NCBI GenBank assembly: GCA_019057795.1
Contig: JAHLWS010000071.1
Span: forward strand, 65,648-129,647
DNA from: Promethearchaeota archaeon
Lineage (GTDB): Archaea > Asgardarchaeota > Lokiarchaeia > Sigyniarchaeales > SOKP01
Direction of reading: 5' to 3'
DNA: 64,000 nucleotides
The position numbers and the translations under genes are program-made. The notes below the pieces were generated by a model. That model was not told the origin of the DNA and made no database searches. It saw nothing but the letters and a program-made list of their open reading frames with translations. How positions within the stretch are numbered: the stretch's first letter is position 1; each line of letters begins with the position of its first letter. This document shows, piece by piece, positions 50,893-62,055 of the stretch.

Positions 50893-51279
50893 TTAATCAA
50901 TTAAAATCTTTAATCCTTGCACTAGTTGTCTTGGAGTAATCCCATATAAAAAAGCTGAATGGAGCGTTTTAATGTCGTTTTCAATATTAGCAATGTCTTT
51001 ATTTAGAGTTTTGTAATCTTCTGCAATCTCTTTTAACTTCGAATAAGAAGTTTCCTTGGAATTACTTAACAATCCAAAATATCCACCGAACGCAGTAATC
51101 ATATTATTAATTAATTCCATTTCTTTATCAGAAAACGATTTTAAGCAATCTTCACAAACTATTCCAAACGACATTCCAATCTTTTTAATCTTAAAGTAAG
51201 AATTGGTGTTACTTCGGCAAAGAAAGCATTTAACGGAGCTAAGTTTTTTCTTCTCTCTTACCAGTTCAGATGTTATCAT
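50893..51279 (-). CDS. Hypothetical zinc-finger protein
   Basis: CFLC...CEDC. Confidence 0.6.
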   Translation of the reverse strand: MITSELVREKKKLSSVKCFLCRSNTNSYFKIKKIGMSFGIVCEDCLKSFSDKEMELINNMITAFGGYFGLLSNSKETSYSKLKEIAEDYKTLNKDIANIENDIKTLHSAFLYGITPRQLVQGLKILID

Positions 51280-51599
51280 GAAATTGAGATAAATCTTGCA
51301 TATTTAAACAAAAATTTTAGAGTATGCAAAATTTAGAAATGGAAAATTTTTTTTTAATTAGTTATTGTAATTTAGTAATAATAATAGATTTAAGCAAAAC
51401 GAGAGCAATTTTTTCTACTTCGCTTTTTTGAGCTTTCAAGCCATCCCTTTTTAGTTTTCCAGTAAATTAAATGAAATTTAATTACCTAGAATGGAAAATA
51501 AGTATAAATAAAATCTTTTCTTAAATTTTAAACATCTATAAAAAAATTCTTAATCCAAAAGAAAGTATAATAAAAACAAGACTTATATGAGGTATAATT

Positions 51600-52312: not shown

Positions 52313-53467
52313 CTACAGGATTGTTTCCAAATCGTCTAATTTTTTTAAGAGCCAATTTTTAAACTCATTAAAATTTTCTACTGAAGGTATTGGTTCTAAA
52401 GTACCTTTTACGCTCTTATTCTTGATGCTTACAGTAGGGTTAATCGGTTTATGCAAGGTATTACTATGAGGTTTGTTTTCTTCGTTTACTTCGGGTAAAT
52501 AAGCAAGTGGGATTTTTAATTTATCGAAGATAATTTGGAAATCTAAAAGATCGTTCTCATTCGCTTGAAGTTTAGTGTATATAATTTTAATCCATTTAGA
52601 CAAAAATTCGGGGGGGATTCCTTTTTCCCAGTGGTGGTTACGCAAATAATTGTATAGTTTTTTAGGGTAGAAGAGCTGTTCAACCTCTAAATTAGCGGGA
52701 TTTACTTTATCAAAGCGATAATCGTGAAGTAATTTTATAAACTCTTGCCCGATTTTACGGTTAGTTTTCAAAATATCCTCGTATTCGTAAGAAAAATCTT
52801 TTAGCGGTTTAGAAAACTTTTTTTTGGGCATTTTTTTTGGTCTTTCGAATTTGGGTATTTGGATCTTAAAATATAACCTAGTAAAAGTTAAAATCTTGTC
52901 CCAAAAAATCTGATCGTAATCGCGCATAAGTTTGGGAAGATTGTCCGCGTTATTCTTGTTATTTAAATCTACGAAGATTTTTGTTGCTACGCTTTTAATT
53001 TTAAGAATTTCGTCTAATAATATTTGTTCGTTTTGAGAAGTTTGGATTAGATGTTGCTCAAAAGACAAATTAACTCTTTCCGGCTCGTAATTAAGAAAGG
53101 AATTGTTCTTTTTGTTGTAAAAAATAAAACTATGGCCATTTGCTAAATGCTCTACATTCTCGTGCGTGTTGATTACGCAGTGTATGTTCGGGGATTCCAA
53201 TAAGATTTTGATATCTTCTACTTTAGCATTCATTATGTAATAAAATGTAGGTTGTTGAGAATATGAGCTACTAACTTCAAATTCAATGATTTCGCGAAGA
53301 TTATGTAATACGGTAGAGTCCAAATCAACTACATCGTACCCTACAGAAAAACAATCTAAAGAATGGATGTGTTTTAAATCGACGTATGGATATATTACCA
53401 AGTTTTTTTGCTGAAAGAATAAAATATTTAAAAATTCTGGTGATATGAAATCGTATTTAGTGTCCAT
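52313..53467 (-). CDS. Hypothetical protein
   Basis: 384-aa ORF with AGGAG SD, downstream of the MglA-like gene. Confidence 0.7.
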   Translation of the reverse strand: MDTKYDFISPEFLNILFFQQKNLVIYPYVDLKHIHSLDCFSVGYDVVDLDSTVLHNLREIIEFEVSSSYSQQPTFYYIMNAKVEDIKILLESPNIHCVINTHENVEHLANGHSFIFYNKKNNSFLNYEPERVNLSFEQHLIQTSQNEQILLDEILKIKSVATKIFVDLNNKNNADNLPKLMRDYDQIFWDKILTFTRLYFKIQIPKFERPKKMPKKKFSKPLKDFSYEYEDILKTNRKIGQEFIKLLHDYRFDKVNPANLEVEQLFYPKKLYNYLRNHHWEKGIPPEFLSKWIKIIYTKLQANENDLLDFQIIFDKLKIPLAYLPEVNEENKPHSNTLHKPINPTVSIKNKSVKGTLEPIPSVENFNEFKNWLLKKLDDLETIL

Positions 53468-53510
53468 AATTCGTCTAATTCTCCTAAATTGTTAAATATA
53501 TAGCCTAATA

Positions 53511-54164
53511 TTAAAGCCTAAAATAATTGAAAATTATTTGGATCATTAAGTCTTCAAAACATCTCCGAACACTATCTCCTTTTAAAGCCACAGTTGGATA
53601 CACTACTGGCGTTCCATCATCGAACTCCTCGGATTGTGGGAGCCCAAGCTCTACTTTAAAGGCCTTTAGAGAAATAGCATTTTCCAAATCTCTCTTGTTT
53701 AGCTGTATTACATATGGAATCCCCTTATCGTGAGTAAAACTGCTTAATTCTCGAAAACTTCGCTTGTTTTGTTCCATTTTTTCAGGGTCGGAATCAGCTA
53801 CAAACACTACGCCGTCAGCTCCATCCAATACATACTCTCGTGTAGATAAAAATCGTTCTTGTCCTGTTGCCGTAACTATTTGCGTAATAATGTTGAATTT
53901 GATCTCTTTAAGATTGAAATAAAACGAAAGTCTGATTGAATCTTGCCATAAAGTTCTACCATCGGTCGTTTCTATGGAATATCCTGCATTTAATTTCACG
54001 CCATCGAACTTTTCTCGCAGCCTAAAATAATTGGTTGTCTTACCTGACTCTCCAGGTCCCCAGTACACGATTTTGAACTGAAGCACCTCTTTTAACGCGT
54101 TAAAACCCGATTCACTACTGATTTCTGCTTTTTTCTTCTCATCTTTCTCGGAATCTACGATCAT
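53511..54164 (-). CDS. mglA: MglA-like small GTPase
   Basis: KIVYWGPGESGKTTN, GRTLWQD, TATGQ, GADGVVFVADS, NKRDL. Confidence 0.85.
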   Translation of the reverse strand: MIVDSEKDEKKKAEISSESGFNALKEVLQFKIVYWGPGESGKTTNYFRLREKFDGVKLNAGYSIETTDGRTLWQDSIRLSFYFNLKEIKFNIITQIVTATGQERFLSTREYVLDGADGVVFVADSDPEKMEQNKRSFRELSSFTHDKGIPYVIQLNKRDLENAISLKAFKVELGLPQSEEFDDGTPVVYPTVALKGDSVRRCFEDLMIQIIFNYFRL

Positions 54165-54190
54165 TTTTCACGCTACACCTTTAATTATAA

Positions 54191-54723
54191 TTAAGCGGAT
54201 TGAAACACTTTCTTTTTTAATTCTCTAAGGTATTCTTTTAACTCTCGTTCGGTCATTTGTAGTTTGGTCATAATAGTTTGATTTCTAGTGATAGCCTCTT
54301 TAATTTTTTGCGAGAACTTTCTCATCTGCAATATTAATACACCAATATTTACCATGTTATCGACTAAAGAACGACGAGAATCTCTCGTTTTCCTTTTTTA
54401 TGAAGTATTACATCTCCAATTGATTTAACGTAAAGTTGCAAATCTTTGTAGATCAAAGTTGCTCTGATTAAAGAGTCTGTCTCGAAAAAATCTTGAGCTT
54501 GCCTAGCAACTCCGTATAGAGCGGCACCGATCGAGCTTAAGTCCCAATAATTCAATTTACGATCAAATCTAGAGTCGATTGCGACGATTTTCGCGTCTTG
54601 ATCAATTGCAATAAGCCCATAAATGTATCCTCTTCTAGTTAACATTCCATAACTATAACGGATTTCGTCCAAAACAATTGTTATTTCGTTTTCGTACAAC
54701 GCTTTGGGTACAAATAATGTCAT
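54191..54723 (-). pseudogene. mglB: MglB/Roadblock-like protein, frameshifted near 54366
   Basis: DLSSIGAALYGVA roadblock core; C-terminal VDNMVNIGVLILQMRK...QSA* lies in the -1 frame (54364-54191). Confidence 0.75.
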
Positions 54724-54835
54724 TTTCTTCTCTAACACCTAATTGTTTATTGATAGAAAAGAAATAGTCTTGGATAATATAAAGGAAAAAATCTAAATAA
54801 AAATTATTGGGTTTAAAAACATAATTCTCGATTAT

Positions 54836-55675
54836 TTGGTAACACTTACGATTATTATCATGATCGAATCGAAGAAAAAAGAATCGGAATCGTTCGAACA
54901 CATCAAAATAAAGAATTTTTTTTACGATAACCTCCCCTTTGATAACAACGTAAAAACTATTAAACTAGAATATTCGATTGGCAATCGAATAGCCGATGTA
55001 TATTGCATGCTAGAGAATGGAAAAGAAGTAGTAATTGAAATTCAGCATTCAATAATTCTTTCCAAAGATTTACTCCAGCGCACTAAAGAGTACAACGAAC
55101 ATAATTGCTATGTTTTATGGGTTTTTAATGGAAGTTCTTTTGAGAGATTACCTAAGATCGGAGATAAAATCCGAATTTTAGGTTTTGAGAGAATTTCTAA
55201 CATATTGTATCGCGGGCGCGTTTATTATATCAACATGACAAAAACTGGACTCCATAGCCCTGTTTATCCTCTATATTTTGCTAATTATTACGAACGTAAA
55301 ATTTCTGATTACGGATTTAGCTATTACAAAAAGTCCAAAACCAAAAAAAGCGTTGTTCCAAGCGAAATTCCGTCTCTTAAGTTAAAATTATTTAAAAACA
55401 AGGGATATAAATTAGCCGGCTTTCACGACGATAACATTCGAAAGACTTGTACCGAATCCATACACCAATTCTTAATAGATTACGAAAATGTTGAAGAAAA
55501 AGTTAAAAATGTTAAAAAAATGAAGTCTAATCAAAAAAAATTGTTCATAATCATTGCTATGTTCGGGCGACTATTTGGATTATATTTGCTCTTTGACATG
55601 TTAAGACACCTTAAAGTTGTCAGTAAAGAAGACTTTCATTACATGAAAGTAAGCTATATTTATTTGGAATTATAA
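54836..55675 (+). CDS. CoiA-like PD-(D/E)xK nuclease
   Basis: ESFEH..K, LEY..RIADV..VIEIQHS..RT..Y..VLWVF; ATG likely at 54860. Confidence 0.75.
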   Translation: MVTLTIIIMIESKKKESESFEHIKIKNFFYDNLPFDNNVKTIKLEYSIGNRIADVYCMLENGKEVVIEIQHSIILSKDLLQRTKEYNEHNCYVLWVFNGSSFERLPKIGDKIRILGFERISNILYRGRVYYINMTKTGLHSPVYPLYFANYYERKISDYGFSYYKKSKTKKSVVPSEIPSLKLKLFKNKGYKLAGFHDDNIRKTCTESIHQFLIDYENVEEKVKNVKKMKSNQKKLFIIIAMFGRLFGLYLLFDMLRHLKVVSKEDFHYMKVSYIYLEL

Positions 55676-55696
55676 AATTGAGATAAAGTTTGATTG

Positions 55697-56626
55697 CTAT
55701 AAAATTTTTAAGGTAGAATTTTTAGTAAAGACCAACTCTTTTTCGGAAGTATAGGAGTTTTCCTTGACGGCCAAATTGGTTATCGAAACGCAATCCCAAT
55801 CGCTTACTAACTTCAAGCACTCGATCGCTTCCATACCCCAAATTTTCACGTGTATCGCGAAAGACTCGACATCTAAAAGTAAAGTAAGTAAAAATGATTT
55901 CTCGCCCGATTTAAGATCCAACTCTTTAAAGTCTTCTATTTTAACATGTCCTTTTACCGAACTAACGAACTTGTTTTGAAGGATAAATTCTTTTAAGCTT
56001 TCTTTCGGAACTGTTTTATAACTTTTTTCGCGGTTTTTATCGATATTAACTGAATCGAGCTTGTCTCTCCTCCCTTGGCTAACATCTTTAGGGGAAAGAA
56101 CTAACTTTCCTTTTCTTCCGAGGTGAACTTCGAGGTTGTCGCTTCTCCCGGCTTTTGAATAACCCCCTATTAAGCGAACGAGCTCGTTTACCCGAAAATA
56201 TTCGTTTTTCGCCGTCTTCGCGTGGTCGTCCCATAAGACGATCTTAACGGTCTCGGTTGAGTCGACCAATAAGAAAGAACAAACCGCGCCCATAGAACCA
56301 TCTTTTCTCGTAAATTCTCGGGTTTGGAAAATTTTAAGTATTTTACCTAACAATACTATATTAGTCATAGACTCTTTAACTTCAGATATATCGATAGTGA
56401 AATCGTCGTAATCGAATTCCTCCTCGAGATCTTCGTATAATTGTGGATCGATTTCAGGTGAATGAAGATAAATGCCGTTTTCTTTAGCGATTATAAATAA
56501 AATACCCTGTTTTGACATAAATCCGCCAAATTCTTTTTCTTTACTTTGAACCTGTCTCTCTAATTCTTCTTCTGAGAATCCTGATTCTAATAATTTTTGA
56601 TACAAATCGTCTATAGAAGCGCTCAT
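55697..56626 (-). CDS. RPA/SSB-type OB-fold protein (DUF2240-like N-terminus)
   Basis: FGGFMSKQG, REFTRKDGS.G.V..LVDSTETVKIVLWD, second OB with IWG. Confidence 0.85.
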   Translation of the reverse strand: MSASIDDLYQKLLESGFSEEELERQVQSKEKEFGGFMSKQGILFIIAKENGIYLHSPEIDPQLYEDLEEEFDYDDFTIDISEVKESMTNIVLLGKILKIFQTREFTRKDGSMGAVCSFLLVDSTETVKIVLWDDHAKTAKNEYFRVNELVRLIGGYSKAGRSDNLEVHLGRKGKLVLSPKDVSQGRRDKLDSVNIDKNREKSYKTVPKESLKEFILQNKFVSSVKGHVKIEDFKELDLKSGEKSFLLTLLLDVESFAIHVKIWGMEAIECLKLVSDWDCVSITNLAVKENSYTSEKELVFTKNSTLKIL

Positions 56627-56752
56627 ATTCCTACTTTAGCTAATTATACAATTTAGTATAAATTCAAATTAGAGTTTTAATTATTTAAACAAAAAAATTA
56701 AAATCAAGTTGTAAATGATTTTCTTAAAAGAAAAGAATTATTTGATAATTAT

Positions 56753-57232
56753 ATGCCCATAATAGATTCTTCATCTGAAAAAAGTGAAATTATTGAAGCG
56801 CTAAACGATTTACTCTTAAAATATAGAGAGCTAACCGAAAATGGCGTTGTTTTCAAACTTAAAAAAGTAAAAAGTCCTTTAGACCTTCTTGGTGTATTAG
56901 ATTTTTTAAAAGATAAAATTCAGAGATGGGGAAACGACGATATATTTACTTACTGTGCCAATTTATTTGAAGACTTTAATGTCATAATTATTGGAGCTAA
57001 AAACATTGAAAAAGCAAAAGAGCTAATAATTTCTGTTTTTCTTTCCGACCTTATTAAGAATGAAGATGAGAGCGGACTCGACGTTATTTTTAAAAACGTA
57101 AACACATTTAACGAGTTTGAAGAATGGTTGAAAAATGAAATTTCAAAAGGCATTTCAAATGGCTATCCCCCAGATCCAGAAAAGGCAAAAGAACTAAAAA
57201 AACATTTAGAGACTATCTTAAAAAATATTTAA
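56753..57232 (+). CDS. Hypothetical protein
   Basis: 159-aa ORF. Confidence 0.6.
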   Translation: MPIIDSSSEKSEIIEALNDLLLKYRELTENGVVFKLKKVKSPLDLLGVLDFLKDKIQRWGNDDIFTYCANLFEDFNVIIIGAKNIEKAKELIISVFLSDLIKNEDESGLDVIFKNVNTFNEFEEWLKNEISKGISNGYPPDPEKAKELKKHLETILKNI

Positions 57233-57345
57233 TTTATTAAACCCAATATAAATATGATCCTCAGAAATACAAAATATATACATGGACGTTTAAATTTACT
57301 TAAAAGTAAGCTAAAATATTTAAAGAAAAAACTATAGTAAATAGT

Positions 57346-57735
57346 ATGAATATAAATAAAAATACCAAGTATGAAGCGTTCAAACTCAAGAATTTAAAGA
57401 GTAAAAAGTATTACAATAAATTTACTCCAGCCCCAGATTCTTCAGAGACGCCGAAGGAACCCATCTCATTACCCGACGCTTTTATGAAATTAATTGATTA
57501 TGTTGGACTTTGCTTATCAATGATAAGCGACAAAAATTTTATGGACATCAAAGTAGATTTAGTATATTGGGGGGATCAATTGCTCATTTCGGCGGAAGCA
57601 GGGGATAGGACAAAATTTGAAGAATCTGAGGAAGAGTTACTCTTTAGGATAAAGCTAATTCTTCCCACAGATAAATTTGATTTTGTAAAACCCAAATTTG
57701 ATGAGTTTTTAGAAAGGTTATCGAAAAGTTTCTGA
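57346..57735 (+). CDS. Hypothetical protein
   Basis: 129-aa ORF. Confidence 0.55.
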   Translation: MNINKNTKYEAFKLKNLKSKKYYNKFTPAPDSSETPKEPISLPDAFMKLIDYVGLCLSMISDKNFMDIKVDLVYWGDQLLISAEAGDRTKFEESEEELLFRIKLILPTDKFDFVKPKFDEFLERLSKSF

Positions 57736-57802
57736 AAAAAGACTTCCCGAAAATTCTTTTTTTTTTTAAGAGTCTTACAACATTCTTGAAAAGATAAAAA
57801 AG

Positions 57803-57876
57803 GGAAGGAACTGGATTGCATCCAGGTAATTTCACTATCGATAGTGAAATCATTGAACATCAATGAACTTCTGAAG
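57803..57876. other. Cluster of three adjacent hairpins/palindromes
   Basis: CTGGAT-TGC-ATCCAG; perfect 22-bp ATTTCACTATCGATAGTGAAAT; CATTGA-ACA-TCAATG. Confidence 0.6.
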
Positions 57877-57904
57877 CCCGATCACCGTATTAATCCACTC
57901 ATCC

Positions 57905-58669
57905 TTACTTATTCTTCATTTTTTTCTTCATTCTTTTTATCTCTTTAGCCTTGTGGTCTTTCATTTCATAAGTCACGATTGCTCTCCGTACTTTCTCTGA
58001 TAACGTCATAGCTACCATTATCACGAATACAATCGCTCCACCACCCGATGCAATAACCAAGACAAGGTTTGTTGGACTTATAGGACCTTGCGTTCCTATC
58101 CACGTGAAATCAGTACGCAATGGAAGCCAATAAACCCAGTGTATTATTGCGAAAAATATGATGCAAGATATTGTTACAACCCCCACCACAATTATTATTG
58201 CTACTCTTCGCTTAGTTAGTTTAACCGCTCCAATAAGGATACCTGGAAAATAACAGGACAATATGAAAGCAGGTACCAACACTAAGTACATGTTCAAAGG
58301 TATCCCTAATACTCCCATTTCCATAAAAGCCATAAAAATCGATTGGAGTACTATGATTATCAAAAACGATATAATTGCCTTCTTTTTTGCCCCACTTAAC
58401 CAATTAGAATATACATACGCTAGCAATACTAAACCCACTGCTACTGCCACGAAAAGCTCACCCCAAATCGACCAATAGGGTGGCATGTTTTTGTAATTAG
58501 GTGTCTCGGTGTTAAAAAGATACCCCATAAGTCTTTCATATCCTTGTAGTGAAAAATATGTTGGTATCAATGCTAACCAATAGAGCGTTAGACTTTCCTT
58601 CCATCGGACTACAAGGCTTTCGATCTTCGCCTTTTCTTCAGGAGTCCATTCATATGAATCTCTAGTCAA
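57905..58669 (-). CDS. Multi-TM membrane protein (~6 TM)
   Basis: TTG start after GGAAGG; hydrophobic segments. Confidence 0.7.
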   Translation of the reverse strand: MTRDSYEWTPEEKAKIESLVVRWKESLTLYWLALIPTYFSLQGYERLMGYLFNTETPNYKNMPPYWSIWGELFVAVAVGLVLLAYVYSNWLSGAKKKAIISFLIIIVLQSIFMAFMEMGVLGIPLNMYLVLVPAFILSCYFPGILIGAVKLTKRRVAIIIVVGVVTISCIIFFAIIHWVYWLPLRTDFTWIGTQGPISPTNLVLVIASGGGAIVFVIMVAMTLSEKVRRAIVTYEMKDHKAKEIKRMKKKMKNK

Positions 58670-58972
58670 TTTCCTTCCCTTCGTATATTGGTAAATTTAA
58701 TATTATATTATCAAAGATTATAAGTAAATCAAGGAAATTTACATATTTGTGAAATTTCCCTCTATCAAGTTCTTTAAGATAAACACATATAAAAATATTT
58801 TGCCGATATAGTGTTTTATAAAATAATATTGTTGCCTGTGTTCAATTATAAAAAAAATTGAATAAAATTTAATTCTAATTAACTCGACATAATTCACATC
58901 TCAACAACCAAAATCACAATATAAAAATTACTAATTGTAGATAGTCTTTACGTTTAATATGTTGAAGTCCAT

Positions 58973-59182
58973 ATGATCGATATGGAAAAACCGGCATCTT
59001 ATTACGATTGGGAAAAGAATTTTAAGAAGTCTTCTAATAAGCGCAAAAACGAGCCAAAAGAAGCGAGGGTCGTTAATTCAATCGGGCTTCCAGACGATTT
59101 TTTTAAAAACTACTTAAAAATGTGGAAGTATAATTATCTTTTTAAAGACAAATTCGAACCCCATAGTCATCGTATCCTCTAA
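58973..59182 (+). CDS. Hypothetical small protein
   Basis: 69-aa ORF only. Confidence 0.45.
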   Translation: MIDMEKPASYYDWEKNFKKSSNKRKNEPKEARVVNSIGLPDDFFKNYLKMWKYNYLFKDKFEPHSHRIL

Positions 59183-59313
59183 TTCTAATTAAAAAAATAT
59201 TTTATACTACGCAGAAGTCATTTTGATATTATACTAATTTTAATTTAAATTATCATTTCATTCGCTATAGCTTATAGTTATTAATAATTTAAGATTGAAG
59301 AGATTTCGAATTT

Positions 59314-59712
59314 ATGTCAGAATTTTTGCTCGATTTTTTTGTTCTCGCGGAAGGAGGAAAAGTGATTTTTAGCCATTCTTCTCTTTTAAAATGCGATGAA
59401 CAACTGCTAGGTGCGTATTTTCACGCAATAAATGCGGTTTATAAGATTTGTTTTCAGAGAGATTTACAAAAAATATCAATGAACCAATATCGTTTGCATT
59501 TTAAGAAGATGGAACCATTTTTCTTTATTGGTATGTCCTCAGTTGACATTGGCTACAAATCAGCTAACAATAATTTTGAACATTTAGCCCACCTATTTTA
59601 CGATAAGTTCCAGCATAATTTGCCGCAATATTGGGAAAGCGACATAAAAATGTTTCATTGCTTTAGTTCTGAAGTGAATAAAAAATTAAAGGAAATTATC
59701 GTAGAAGGATAA
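59314..59712 (+). CDS. Stand-alone longin-like domain protein
   Basis: FFVLAEGGKVIFS, DEQLLGAYFHAI, FYDKF..WESDIKMF..F. Confidence 0.7.
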   Translation: MSEFLLDFFVLAEGGKVIFSHSSLLKCDEQLLGAYFHAINAVYKICFQRDLQKISMNQYRLHFKKMEPFFFIGMSSVDIGYKSANNNFEHLAHLFYDKFQHNLPQYWESDIKMFHCFSSEVNKKLKEIIVEG

Positions 59713-59720
59713 AATCGAGC

Positions 59721-59930
59721 TTAAAAATCAACAATAAAAACAGAGTAATCCAAAGCTGCTTTTATATCATCTTCAGTAAGCCTTGAATATTCATCTATTA
59801 TCTTTTGAAAGGTTGCTCCATCGCGCAACATTTTCAAGACTATAGATATTGGAATTCTCGTTCCTTTAAATACTGGCTTCCCAGATAAAATTTTTGGATC
59901 GATATTAATTCGATCAGCATATCCTATCAT
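59721..59930 (-). CDS. DUF433 family antitoxin-like protein (orphan)
   Basis: RINIDPKILSGKPVFKGTRIPI..Y..LTEDDIKAALDY. Confidence 0.9.
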   Translation of the reverse strand: MIGYADRINIDPKILSGKPVFKGTRIPISIVLKMLRDGATFQKIIDEYSRLTEDDIKAALDYSVFIVDF

Positions 59931-60072
59931 TTTTAATCATCATTTTACAATTTTCTAATAATTAAATTATATTCCCTCTACTTATAATTTACTATATTTC
60001 TATATGGGAACATTTCTTTCTGATCAAACGATGGCTTGAAAAGGCACGAGAAGTAAAAGAAATAAATAAACT

Positions 60073-60678
60073 TCAGTTTAAGTTTCCGGATTTATTTATC
60101 TTTAACTTGTTCCTAGCCATGTGGAAGGCGTAGGCAGAACAAGAACACAGGGCTCTTAAATTTTTTTGGAGTATATAATTGTTGTTGGTTAAATTTGCAT
60201 CGTTTCGATCGGTAACAAAAATTACAAGGGCAAGCTGAGTTGGAACGTGAGGCCAAAAAAATTTGCGACCTAACAAGATGTGTAGAAGCTCTAAATTTTT
60301 TTTTGCTCGCTGATAATCGAATATAGGGGCGATTTTATAAGCTTTATGAAGGTACACTCGTACTTTTCGATAAAGACGCTTTCTCTCAGGAGTCCACGCG
60401 ATGTAACCAGAACGTAACATTTCGTTAAAAGCTTTTACTTCTTTTAGAAATTTGCTCATAATGTCTAAAACGAGATTGTTAGGTACATGCGTCTGTACCG
60501 CGATATTTTTGACGAGAAAGTGACTTAGCTCTATAACGCTGCTATCGCCGTTAGTTAGGCTCTCGCACCTGAAAAAATGATCTAATACTCTTTTTTTAAC
60601 TATAAAACGCTTAGATAATTCGCTCAGCACTTCTAAATTTTTCACCAAAAATACCGATTCGCTCGTATTACCAGCCAT
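60073..60678 (-). CDS. Hypothetical protein with TFB/cyclin-like C-terminus
   Basis: LALVIFVTDR..ILQKNLRALCSCSAYAFHMARNKL resembles the TFB HTH. Confidence 0.5.
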   Translation of the reverse strand: MAGNTSESVFLVKNLEVLSELSKRFIVKKRVLDHFFRCESLTNGDSSVIELSHFLVKNIAVQTHVPNNLVLDIMSKFLKEVKAFNEMLRSGYIAWTPERKRLYRKVRVYLHKAYKIAPIFDYQRAKKNLELLHILLGRKFFWPHVPTQLALVIFVTDRNDANLTNNNYILQKNLRALCSCSAYAFHMARNKLKINKSGNLN

Positions 60679-60744
60679 TATTTATTCAATGTCATAAACT
60701 TTAAAATCATTAAAAAAATTATAAATGTTAAAACCGTTGCTCAT

Positions 60745-61845
60745 TTATAAAGAAAAATTAGAAAGAAAAGTTTTTTGTACGGTTCGCGGGTTTGCTTTCT
60801 GCGTTTCGAAATAGTCTCGGCACTTATCGAAATTCGCAAGTAGCTTGGCTAAATTGTTTTGTACTCTTTCCCTATTTAAATAATGTTCTTCGCACAATAA
60901 AGAAAGAGTTTGTTGTTCGTTGGGAAAGTTCCAATTTAAACTAGGGTACTGAGTAATAACTTCGGGTAGCAAAAATATTTTTCTAACTTCTGCAATCAAT
61001 TCATGAGTAAGGGAAGAAAAATCGTAGTTTTTTTTTTCCTGGTAAATTACATTTTCCAAATTTTTGTGGTTTTTAACGAACTTATAGGCGTGTTTCGGTC
61101 CAATTTTTCTGATCCCCGGAAAATAGTCGTTTCCAATAAGGATTCCTATGTCGACGAGTTGGAACTGGTCGATTCCTAATCGCTTTAAATTTGCTTTCAG
61201 GTTGATTACCACAGGTACGACCTTTTGGTATTTCCAACGCCCTTGTACCTTCCTTCTTAGCGATTTCGAGAGGTTCTGAAGTTGTCTCGGGCACTCGAAC
61301 AGTAGGGAATCGAAATCCTGGGAGTTGGAATAATGAGCGACCTTATCCTTGACCAGTTGGGCGCATTGAGATTCTGCCGAAGCGGGAGAACTTATACAAG
61401 GGATCCCTAAAGCTCCTAAGAGCTGTTTCGATTCTTTGATGATATTAGGCCATAGATACTCTCTGGACATCGCGATTTTTTTTGCGTTTTCCCTGTTCCC
61501 GGAACGAAGCATCGATCGATACAAATTTTGCGTGAAAATAAAATCGTTAAGTCGGTCTTTCGTTTTTAACTTCTTGAGCTCTGAGTCGAGTCCGTCGAAG
61601 CAGAATATCGGGAAAATCTTCTTGGAGTAGTAAAAGTTAATCCTGTACAACAAACTGTAGAGGTGAGATATCGGTCTTTGGGTTCGATCTAAGATTAGCC
61701 CAGCGCGAGAGCCGTCTGGGTTTTTTCGGGCGAAGTTAAATAAGCTCATAACTATGTTTGGGGCGTCTATTGCCAAAATTTTACCAGCTAACTCGGAAAA
61801 TTCGATTTTATTTCGGACAATGAGCTCTTGAAGTTTAACTCCCAT
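60745..61845 (-). CDS. fen: Flap endonuclease 1-like protein (divergent)
   Basis: MGV, AIDA, SHL..LYR, FDG, AESQ, SQDFD, GNDY.PG..IGPK, PIP-like QKTFLSNF. Confidence 0.88.
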   Translation of the reverse strand: MGVKLQELIVRNKIEFSELAGKILAIDAPNIVMSLFNFARKNPDGSRAGLILDRTQRPISHLYSLLYRINFYYSKKIFPIFCFDGLDSELKKLKTKDRLNDFIFTQNLYRSMLRSGNRENAKKIAMSREYLWPNIIKESKQLLGALGIPCISSPASAESQCAQLVKDKVAHYSNSQDFDSLLFECPRQLQNLSKSLRRKVQGRWKYQKVVPVVINLKANLKRLGIDQFQLVDIGILIGNDYFPGIRKIGPKHAYKFVKNHKNLENVIYQEKKNYDFSSLTHELIAEVRKIFLLPEVITQYPSLNWNFPNEQQTLSLLCEEHYLNRERVQNNLAKLLANFDKCRDYFETQKANPRTVQKTFLSNFSL

Positions 61846-62055
61846 ACAATCTATTTAAACGGGTTTTATAAAAAGAAAAAAAGCTTAAAATTAATACTTA
61901 TTTACCCCCAAAGTGATGTTTTTTACTCCTTTTTCTCAATTTTTACCAGTAATATTCTTGAAACCATTTATATACAAAAAAATATATTATTAACACAGTT
62001 ATTGACATTGGAATCTTTTCTTAATTTAAAAAATAAAATGGTGGAATAATAAACA

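Follow-up and report, generated by a model that had tools for sequence, protein, structure and literature searches.

A main reason to think that Asgard archaea already controlled trafficking in a eukaryote-like manner is their set of small GTPases with partners of the Roadblock, longin and DENN types. Most Asgard archaea are predicted to encode an operon of a Roadblock (LAMTOR1-like) protein, a small GTPase and a DENN protein (Liu et al., bioRxiv 10.1101/2020.10.19.343400). Asgard archaea have also been described to possess a divergent, long-branched second copy of the flap endonuclease FEN1, termed Fen1-2, alongside Fen1-1 (PMC12680538, Nat Ecol Evol 2025). The Fen1-2 lineage was proposed to be related to eukaryotic FEN1 and was placed near its root (PMC12680538). 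The Roadblock-GTPase-DENN trio and Fen1-2 are thus each already published. Here, we analyze a locus in which both are found together. It lies at positions 52313 to 61845 of a window of 64,000 nucleotides from a Promethearchaeota archaeon (assembly GCA_019057795.1, contig JAHLWS010000071.1, positions 65,648 to 129,647 of the forward strand). At this locus one such GTPase switch is tied via synteny, co-occurrence and a shared promoter to paralogs of DNA-processing proteins, and in relatives also to RNases. In literature searches that combined Asgard archaea with flap endonuclease, nuclease, GTPase, Roadblock and DENN, no paper was found on the linkage, on the shared promoter or on the swapping of NYN and HEPN domains. 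We are about half convinced that the region is the central part of a separately regulated second toolkit for recombination and repair, which is vertically inherited and dispensable within one family of Lokiarchaeia.

The module has five core transcription units. These are Fen1-2, the cyclin-box protein u201, a paralog of the single-strand binding protein RPA, an operon of a Roadblock-type gene, an MglA-family GTPase and a DENN-like gene (u384), and the small zinc-ribbon protein u128. Loci of 20 kb around Fen1-2 were compared in the same genus, as were loci around u384 in other genera and on 77 public contigs. In the same-genus loci, in the other genera and on the public contigs the genes follow each other on the same strand in the order Fen1-2, u201, RPA paralog, Roadblock, MglA, DENN-like. 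About 30 of the 34 public loci with a full upstream flank show this gene order, and order and strand are kept in at least 10 genera of one Promethearchaeia (Lokiarchaeia) family. A compact form of the core module is found in locus L044, where the intergenic gaps measure 23-91 bp. The linkage of the module core is far beyond chance. An earlier reading of the same DNA, made from the letters alone (the sequence-only reading), had named the genes of this region, and all of them were recovered in the open reading frame (ORF) listing and the profile searches. It had further proposed an undescribed Asgard module in which an MglA-type GTPase switch is linked to dedicated DNA-processing paralogs, and the co-location of these paralogs in many other genomes supports this proposal. 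Neither of the two findings that it had named as refuting holds, since the housekeeping copies are encoded elsewhere and the genes do lie together in other genomes.

Presence and absence of the two marker genes point in the same direction. Fen1-2 and the DENN-like gene were scored in 135 family genomes: they occur together in 78 and are both missing in 31, Fen1-2 alone is found in 7 and the DENN-like gene alone in 19; these are raw counts, as related genomes are not independent. Several family genomes without a detected Fen1-2 are 98-99% complete. The correlated presence and absence indicates that the module is accessory and passed on as a whole. A maximum-likelihood tree places the Fen1-2 proteins of the family in one clade (support 99), which is sister to the paralogs of the sister family and stands apart from canonical FEN1, and the Fen1-2 tree is congruent with the taxonomy. 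The module is vertically inherited and dispensable within one Lokiarchaeia family.

The two flanks of the module behave differently. Upstream, the conserved block extends to two small membrane proteins, a zinc-binding protein, a 340-aa protein and a RadA paralog, and the block E340, C100, A78, B123, Fen1-2 and onward recurs in 24-43 of the 77 loci. On the 3' side no gene is common to more than 19 of the 77 loci and the gene order differs between genera. This broken downstream synteny serves as an internal control for the persistence of the module. In the source genome the upstream part of the conserved block forms the start of contig C32, and hence the end of the contig that holds the window probably joins C32. 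Genome G008 contains four diverged copies of the module (L036, L037, L039, L050) with 70-90% DNA identity that include the upstream membrane genes. This genome is a metagenome-assembled genome of 4.9 Mb with 9% contamination, and the four copies may reflect segmental duplication or several strains that were binned together. In the sister family the arrangement is different. The complete genome at locus L046 encodes a Hel308-like helicase, a RadA paralog, a 419-aa Fen1-2 with a basic tail and a SIR2-TPR protein, followed by an inverted MglA-Roadblock-DENN-like (499 aa) set and a 411-aa protein with a TFIIB zinc ribbon. Three other sister-family loci have Fen1-2 only, sometimes together with RadA. 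Since the linkage is loose or absent in three of the four sister-family loci, we claim the module for one family only.

The second line of evidence is a promoter-like motif. It reads T5-7 (C/G)1-2 T3-5 AWAW (the consensus can also be written TTTTTT(C/G)TTTAWAW), is in effect a T-run fused to a TATA box, and lies 35-80 nt upstream of all five core units, always on the coding strand. Upstream of Fen1-2 it is found as TTTTTCTTTTTATAA at a distance of 35 nt (61866..61880, minus strand), and the copy upstream of u201, TTTTTCTTTATAA (60745..60757, minus strand), overlaps the stop codon of Fen1-2. The RPA paralog is preceded at about 60-70 nt by TTTTTGTTTAAAT (56683..56695, minus strand). About 50 nt upstream of the Roadblock gene is TTTTTCCTTTATAT (54777..54790, minus strand), the putative promoter of the Roadblock-MglA-DENN operon. 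Finally, a second instance of TTTTTGTTTAAAT (51302..51314, minus strand) stands 35 nt upstream of u128. The exact core pattern was observed 5 times in the window against an expectation of 1.03, and 0 of 100 shuffles reached 5. Genome-wide, 56 of 4277 ORFs (1.3%) carry the motif within 130 nt upstream, and the region is the densest cluster in the genome. No motif was found in the window before the inserted genes, before MglA or before the DENN-like gene. In the relatives the motif precedes the Roadblock gene in 25 of 26 cases and, in a relaxed form, u201 in 25 of 25. For Fen1-2 the count is 18/29 (33-43 nt upstream), for the RPA paralog 16/25, for u128 6/7 in the strict form and for CoiA 0/3. 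MglA is likely read together with the Roadblock gene, as the motif is upstream of MglA in 0 of 27 relatives. Conserved adjacency across the family together with one unusual promoter suggests that these genes probably form one separately controlled programme of DNA recombination or exchange. One orphan copy of the motif (57318-57330, minus strand) falls within a segment that varies between strains. It is directed into the 3' end of u159, a convergent gene, and is not followed by a core gene.

The motif is also present elsewhere in the genome, namely before the RadA paralog, before A78 and its paralog, before a D110-like zinc-ribbon gene and before both Roadblock copies. On contig C27 it precedes an RPA paralog copy and a fragment of u201. 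In particular, an operon on contig C82 (C82:186197-189288) stands under the motif and encodes a 106-aa protein, a 252-aa protein and a 652-aa DUF87 (HerA/VirB4-like) ATPase; the A78 paralog adjoins it. The two smaller proteins are predicted to be membrane proteins from their hydrophobic N-termini only, and a PDB sequence search with the 652-aa ATPase returned nothing. The C82 operon could be a DNA-translocation apparatus of the same regulon. The role in DNA exchange that the sequence-only reading had suggested is plausible, since the same promoter class is found at the RadA paralog and at this operon of membrane proteins and a HerA/VirB4-like ATPase. The RadA paralog, elsewhere a neighbor of the module, appears in this genome as two ORFs that overlap in different frames (C32:7048-8263), and thus as a split gene.

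Fen1-2 is encoded at 60745..61845 on the minus strand. The protein matches the Pfam families XPG_I (4e-19), XPG_N (4e-5) and 5_3_exonuc (2e-6), and its nearest PDB matches are archaeal FEN-1 structures, with a query profile that included one canonical sequence. Against the NCBIfam model fen_arch (TIGR03674) it reaches 260.5 bits, which is below the cut-off of 351.95 for the housekeeping archaeal FEN1. Six of the seven active-site carboxylates and the gateway lysine K91 are invariant, and the equivalent of R100 is variable. The substitution in the EGEAQ motif noted in the sequence-only reading is real: the motif reads SAESQ, and its first Glu is Ser in every Fen1-2 of this family and Glu in the paralogs of the sister family. 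The claim that the tail resembling a PCNA-interacting protein (PIP) box is kept has to be corrected. The tail is degenerate; Q-x-T-L-D is conserved, so that the Gln and the Leu at +3 of the box Qxx[LIM]xx[FY][FY] are there, and hydrophobic residues that vary stand in place of the aromatic pair. Elsewhere in the genome, contig C70 encodes a canonical FEN1 that has EGEAQ and the PIP box QVSLDSFF, as well as a canonical RPA of 580 aa, and hence the genes of the window are not the sole copies. The genome has a single PCNA, which is located outside the module.

The RPA paralog (55697..56626, minus strand; 309 aa) consists of an RPA1-type N-terminal helical domain and two OB folds. Its best PDB match is the Pyrococcus RPA 8aaj_A (9e-23), which covers residues 14-203 and thus the N-terminal domain and the first OB fold. 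Among the NCBIfam models replication factor A is matched at 4e-24, and all NCBIfam scores are far below their cut-offs. The zinc-finger C-terminal domain is lacking; Rep_fac-A_C was found only in the canonical 580-aa protein. Further copies of the paralog are encoded on C20 and C27. Between Fen1-2 and the RPA paralog sits u201 (60073..60678, minus strand), and it does so across the relatives. This protein is made up of an N-terminal helical domain and one TFIIB-type cyclin box with a conserved helix-turn-helix-like motif. The structural model has a pLDDT of 82.6, and its residues 96-201 match TFIIB, Brf and TFB at Z 8.2-7.0 in VIA-align. The earlier designation as a TFB-like factor therefore holds in part. 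The C-terminal 105 residues resemble one cyclin box (Z 8.2), and there is no cysteine ribbon, no Pfam match and no counterpart of the second TFB cyclin repeat. Foldseek against the PDB gave no significant match for u201. With hhalign the probability against the genome's own TFB was 0.25%, and against the TFIIB-ribbon protein of the sister family nothing was found. About eleven TFB genes are present in the source genome, and on C27 (C27:6859-10520) a complete TFB gene stands beside the RPA paralog copy and the 81-aa u201 fragment, each of these two with the shared motif. In other genera (27 loci) a stand-alone zinc-ribbon protein with an acidic tail (YYCPRCKS...IEC..C.L.F) is encoded immediately before Fen1-2, for example at L131:5244-5579, and a second copy sometimes follows the DENN-like gene (loci L131-L189). 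It shows a weak Pfam match to RPA_interact_C (0.0044). This zinc ribbon and the cyclin-box protein u201 resemble the two halves of a TFB.

The GTPase of the operon (53511..54164, minus strand) carries the P-loop GPGESGKT and the motifs GRTLW, TATGQE and NKRD. In the alignment GRTLW, T(A/C)TGQE and NK(R/Q)D are invariant. A profile search of the PDB retrieves MglA structures at 1e-29, with the next family at 5e-9. The Roadblock/MglB-like gene (54191..54738, minus strand) lies directly upstream of MglA, and a Roadblock-type gene does so in all loci. Its product is assigned with some caution, with an E-value of 0.15 to the Roadblock chain 9jue_D, language-model features at 0.90 to Robl_LC7 clusters and no Pfam match; the protein has a C-terminal helix. 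In relatives the gene is one ORF of 177 aa. Here it is divided into ORFs of 124 aa and 54 aa by a 1-bp deletion near 54367, as judged from the DNA alignment. The deletion at 54360-54370 is the same in a second sample of the same study (X2), and related strains of two other studies (X5, X7) have an intact frame.

The third gene of the operon, u384 (52313..53467, minus strand; 384 aa), encodes an alpha/beta core with a helical domain (residues 1-205), a second helical domain with an invariant LYxYLRNHHW and a C-terminal helix. An AlphaFold model built from a 39-sequence alignment reached a pLDDT of 82. In VIA-align, residues 1-202 are closest to the DENN domain of folliculin (Z 10.2, root-mean-square deviation 3.3 over 163 residues), followed by DENND10 (9.8), SMCR8 (9.2) and DENND1A (8.1). 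The cores of AAA+, STAND and clamp-loader proteins score Z 8-9.7 over the first 120 residues only. Foldseek prefers clamp-loader subunits (E 3e-3), and a shape search of the atlas found only AAA+ cores, for residues 1-122 at a TM of about 0.26; the atlas feature search gave no usable match for residues 215-384. A reading of u384 as a clamp-loader delta-like protein, prompted by the top rows of Foldseek and by the PIP-like tail of Fen1-2, was ranked below DENN. The DENN assignment is preferred because the AAA+ alignments stop at residue 120, because a Walker A motif is lacking and because the gene lies directly behind MglA. None of 39 DENN-like homologs matched the Pfam DENN families, even at E 5. 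The N-terminal longin (u-DENN) module is missing, as the model begins directly at the alpha/beta core, and separate longin-like genes are located nearby in two arrangements. The operon is likely the published Roadblock/GTPase/DENN operon. The DENN-like proteins form a narrow family, for which a set of 1.84 billion proteins yielded 147 representatives. About one in three members from other genera is longer, and 36 of 39 long forms have an NYN or HEPN-like extension. An NYN domain (Pfam 6e-14) is fused in 19 of them; the FRNKxxH type (10 forms) and the RNxxxSH type (7 forms) are HEPN-like, with a match to HepT in one member (1.8e-4).

Just downstream of the DENN-like gene is u128 (50893..51279, minus strand), a small zinc-ribbon protein with the pattern CxxC...CxxC. 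Orthologs are found 3' of the DENN-like gene in 19 loci, and a paralog is encoded on C32. Pfam, NCBIfam, PADLOC and PHROGs returned nothing for u384, u201, the Roadblock protein and u128, save two weak matches of u128 to PHROGs of unknown function. A second Roadblock-MglA-DENN-like trio with the same promoter motif is present on contig C69 (C69:104935-110677, corresponding to L060:8935-14677). A fragment of a C5 DNA methylase precedes it, and behind it come genes for a TPR protein, for an OB-fold/zinc-ribbon protein of 475 aa and for a zinc-ribbon protein of 234 aa. Two further genomes (L121, L122) have kept this arrangement.

Several genes within the region are variable inserts. The CoiA_nuc-like nuclease gene (54836..55675, plus strand; Pfam 2e-10) matches positions 1-87 of the 158 profile positions. 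It is one of three copies dispersed in the genome and lies within the module in only a few genus-level relatives. At distances of up to 10 kb from the module, CoiA_nuc-like genes recur in at least five arrangements (L131, L143, L151, L154, L161, L184 and the window), never with the motif, and this recurrence exceeds what is expected at about three copies per genome. A block of u159, u129, TM254, u69, a longin-like gene and a DUF433 gene (56753..59930, with no strand assigned) is absent from most relatives. The longin-like gene (59314..59712, plus strand) gives a weak match of 5e-5 and is found in the closest relatives only, and DUF433 is matched at 1e-21. Related strains lack 57223-58868, which holds u129 and the 254-aa membrane gene, and 59713-60084, which holds DUF433; at the joints they have 15-26 other letters. 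Thus CoiA, longin, DUF433 and the membrane genes are inserts of particular strains or genera. The sequence-only reading had counted CoiA and the longin among the members of the module, a view that the missing motif and the few relatives with CoiA, and the restriction of the longin to the closest relatives, contradict. Across the loci the inserted ORFs number 64 in 52 unrelated clusters, mostly metabolic, and no integrase or transposase is among the families listed for them.

How could these genes act together? A dedicated transcription factor, either a TFB paralog or u201 or both, might switch the set on by reading the T-run in place of the TFB-recognition element (BRE). Candidate triggers are DNA damage, cell contact and incoming DNA. 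The RPA paralog would then coat single-stranded DNA, the RadA paralog would pair it and Fen1-2 would trim the resulting 5' flaps, possibly while tethered to the single PCNA via its tail. The MglA GTPase might set the place or the time at which this machinery assembles, with the Roadblock/MglB protein as its GTPase-activating protein; the DENN-like protein would serve as exchange factor or as an adaptor for effectors. If the GTPase behaves like bacterial MglA, assembly could take place at a defined site of the cell, for instance a site of contact or import. The RNase (NYN or HEPN) that the DENN-like protein carries in many relatives might remove RNA or RNA:DNA hybrids. The trio is connected to nucleic acids by two further, independent observations, namely the trio on C69 with its OB-fold/zinc-ribbon protein and the NYN and HEPN-like extensions. 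Tentatively, and with more doubt than conviction, we suggest that the trio, widely cited as an Asgard precursor of eukaryotic trafficking control, is in Lokiarchaeia instead the switch of a private programme of recombination and DNA exchange with its own promoter code, a dedicated TFIIB-like factor and second versions of RadA, RPA and FEN1. A membrane ATPase for the transfer of DNA between cells may be coupled to this programme.

Several observations weigh against the reading of the region as a second recombination toolkit. Insertions of unrelated genes occur between the RPA paralog and the Roadblock gene, which indicates that the two halves are not one transcript. The frameshift in the Roadblock gene and the apparently split RadA paralog suggest that the programme may be decaying in this strain. 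The strict motif is absent before Fen1-2 and before the RPA paralog in about half of the relatives; some compact loci without it may be co-transcribed with the upstream gene. The reading of the motif as a promoter is drawn from the sequence pattern alone. The Roadblock assignment is weak at the sequence level, and the DENN assignment relies on a modest Z of 10.2 against 9.7 for AAA+/STAND cores and on the published description of a similar operon. Finally, the swapping of NYN and HEPN domains, the variation in copy number and the patchy presence would also fit a defense system.

On account of the last three features, a defense against viruses or plasmids remains a serious rival, which we nevertheless judge to be unlikely. 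In such a system the RPA paralog would sense foreign single-stranded DNA or replication intermediates, the MglA, Roadblock and DENN-like proteins would transduce the signal, and Fen1-2 and the fused NYN or HEPN RNases would be the effectors. Three unrelated RNase-type domains have been swapped at the same position of the DENN-like protein, up to four diverged copies of the module occur in one genome and extra copies in the source genome, and the distribution stays patchy when genomes of 98-99% completeness are considered. Insertions and deletions within the region at the level of strains, the SIR2-TPR gene beside the sister-family version and the C5-methylase fragment beside the second trio would also suit a defense function. 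However, the models of PADLOC 2.0, a mostly bacterial library, gave no match among the seven core proteins, and the inserted genes are mostly metabolic. Position and flanks of the module are stable across the family and the tree is congruent with the taxonomy, unlike what is typical for mobile defense islands. Moreover, RadA, RPA and FEN1, of which the partners are paralogs, are recombination proteins, and a tail of the PCNA type, albeit degenerate, is retained in Fen1-2.

Distinctly improbable, in our view, is that there is no joint function, and that a GTPase operon of the trafficking type and some replication paralogs are neighbors only because too little time has passed for their order to break up. 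The trio has indeed been read in the literature as membrane-trafficking-like (10.1101/2020.10.19.343400), unrelated genes insert freely between the two halves, and the sister family shows a loose link or none in three of four loci. Mere proximity is however difficult to reconcile with a rare promoter motif on both halves, with correlated presence and absence, and with a module that persists where the downstream synteny is broken. A second arrangement joins the trio to another OB-fold protein, and RNase domains are fused to the DENN-like protein, which likewise speaks against an accidental neighborhood.

We give little credence to a sub-functionalized housekeeping role, and somewhat less than to accidental proximity. 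According to this explanation Fen1-2 and the RPA paralog would serve a specialized branch of replication, such as Okazaki fragment or R-loop processing, with the GTPase as a timer of the cell cycle. The largely intact active site, the Q-x-x-L tail, the single PCNA and the long coexistence of Fen1-1 and Fen1-2 (PMC12680538) would agree with it. Yet no Fen1-2 was detected in several genomes of 98-99% completeness, its promoter class is private, and it is associated with the RadA paralog and with the membrane ATPase operon, not with replisome genes. A module of streptococcal-type transformation with CoiA and a dedicated single-stranded DNA-binding protein (SSB) as its core, or the replication kit of a domesticated mobile element, both raised in the sequence-only reading, are very improbable: the CoiA_nuc-like gene inside the module and its recurrence within 10 kb in at least five arrangements are offset by its lack of the motif and its absence from most loci, which largely refute it as a core part, the competence analogy finds no backing, as ComEC gave no match and the best DprA hit of 21 bits is below the cut-off of 29.6 in a genome that is 100% complete by marker genes, and the mobile kit is disfavored by conserved flanks and vertical descent, by the insert families with no integrase or transposase among those listed, and by the lack of any PHROG match beyond the two weak ones of u128.

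If the reading as a second recombination toolkit is true, it changes how a signature operon of the Asgard archaea is to be understood and offers a concrete, testable function for Fen1-2. It would point to a regulated programme of recombination or gene exchange in the closest archaeal relatives of eukaryotes, with a promoter code in the style of an alternative TFB. Every part of the module is a small, soluble protein and as such accessible to expression and assay.

A comparison with described systems helps to place the module. The second, long-branched FEN1 that coexists with canonical Fen1-1 in Lokiarchaeia (PMC12680538) corresponds to what we find here. However, that paper treats Fen1-2 as a replisome gene on the basis of phylogeny only, its neighbors are not discussed and the word "GTPase" is absent from the main text. 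The genomic context, the putatively shared promoter and the fixed change of Glu to Ser are what is new for Fen1-2. The operon of Liu et al. (10.1101/2020.10.19.343400) likewise has three co-oriented genes of the same kinds, and folliculin DENN is the best structural match in our case. There, the GTPase was called Rab-like and the DENN protein was seen as an FLCN-like exchange factor for trafficking GTPases, whereas the GTPase here is clearly of the MglA family and the DENN-like protein is often tipped with an RNase. The operon here also has its promoter class and a conserved gene neighborhood in common with the cyclin-box protein, Fen1-2 and the RPA paralog.

With the MglA/MglB switch of Myxococcus xanthus and Thermus thermophilus the GTPase shares TxxGQ, the arginine of RTL, NKRD and a putative Roadblock-type partner upstream. 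In contrast, the host here is an archaeon, the third member is DENN-like and not RomR/RomX, and the motif is common with DNA-processing paralogs, not with motility genes. The folliculin-FNIP/Rag/Ragulator system also brings together the three fold types assigned here, the putative ones DENN and Roadblock and the small GTPase. Here, the GTPase is not Rag-type, a fused longin is missing, no lysosomal or nutrient context is evident, and the partners would act on nucleic acids. The competence proteins CoiA and SsbB of streptococci and Bacillus resemble the locus in that a CoiA_nuc-like nuclease stands near an extra single-stranded DNA-binding protein, but the CoiA of the window is a partial profile match in a variable insert that lacks the motif, ComEC and DprA were not found, and the SSB is RPA-type and not bacterial.

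The nearest functional analogue is the TFB3 damage regulon of Sulfolobales with its Ups pili and the Ced importer (PMC6101594). Its components are non-homologous as far as tested, the GTPase switch has no counterpart there, and no pili were identified here. As in that regulon, genes for recombination and for a membrane ATPase have a promoter element in common, and a dedicated TFB-related factor may act on it.

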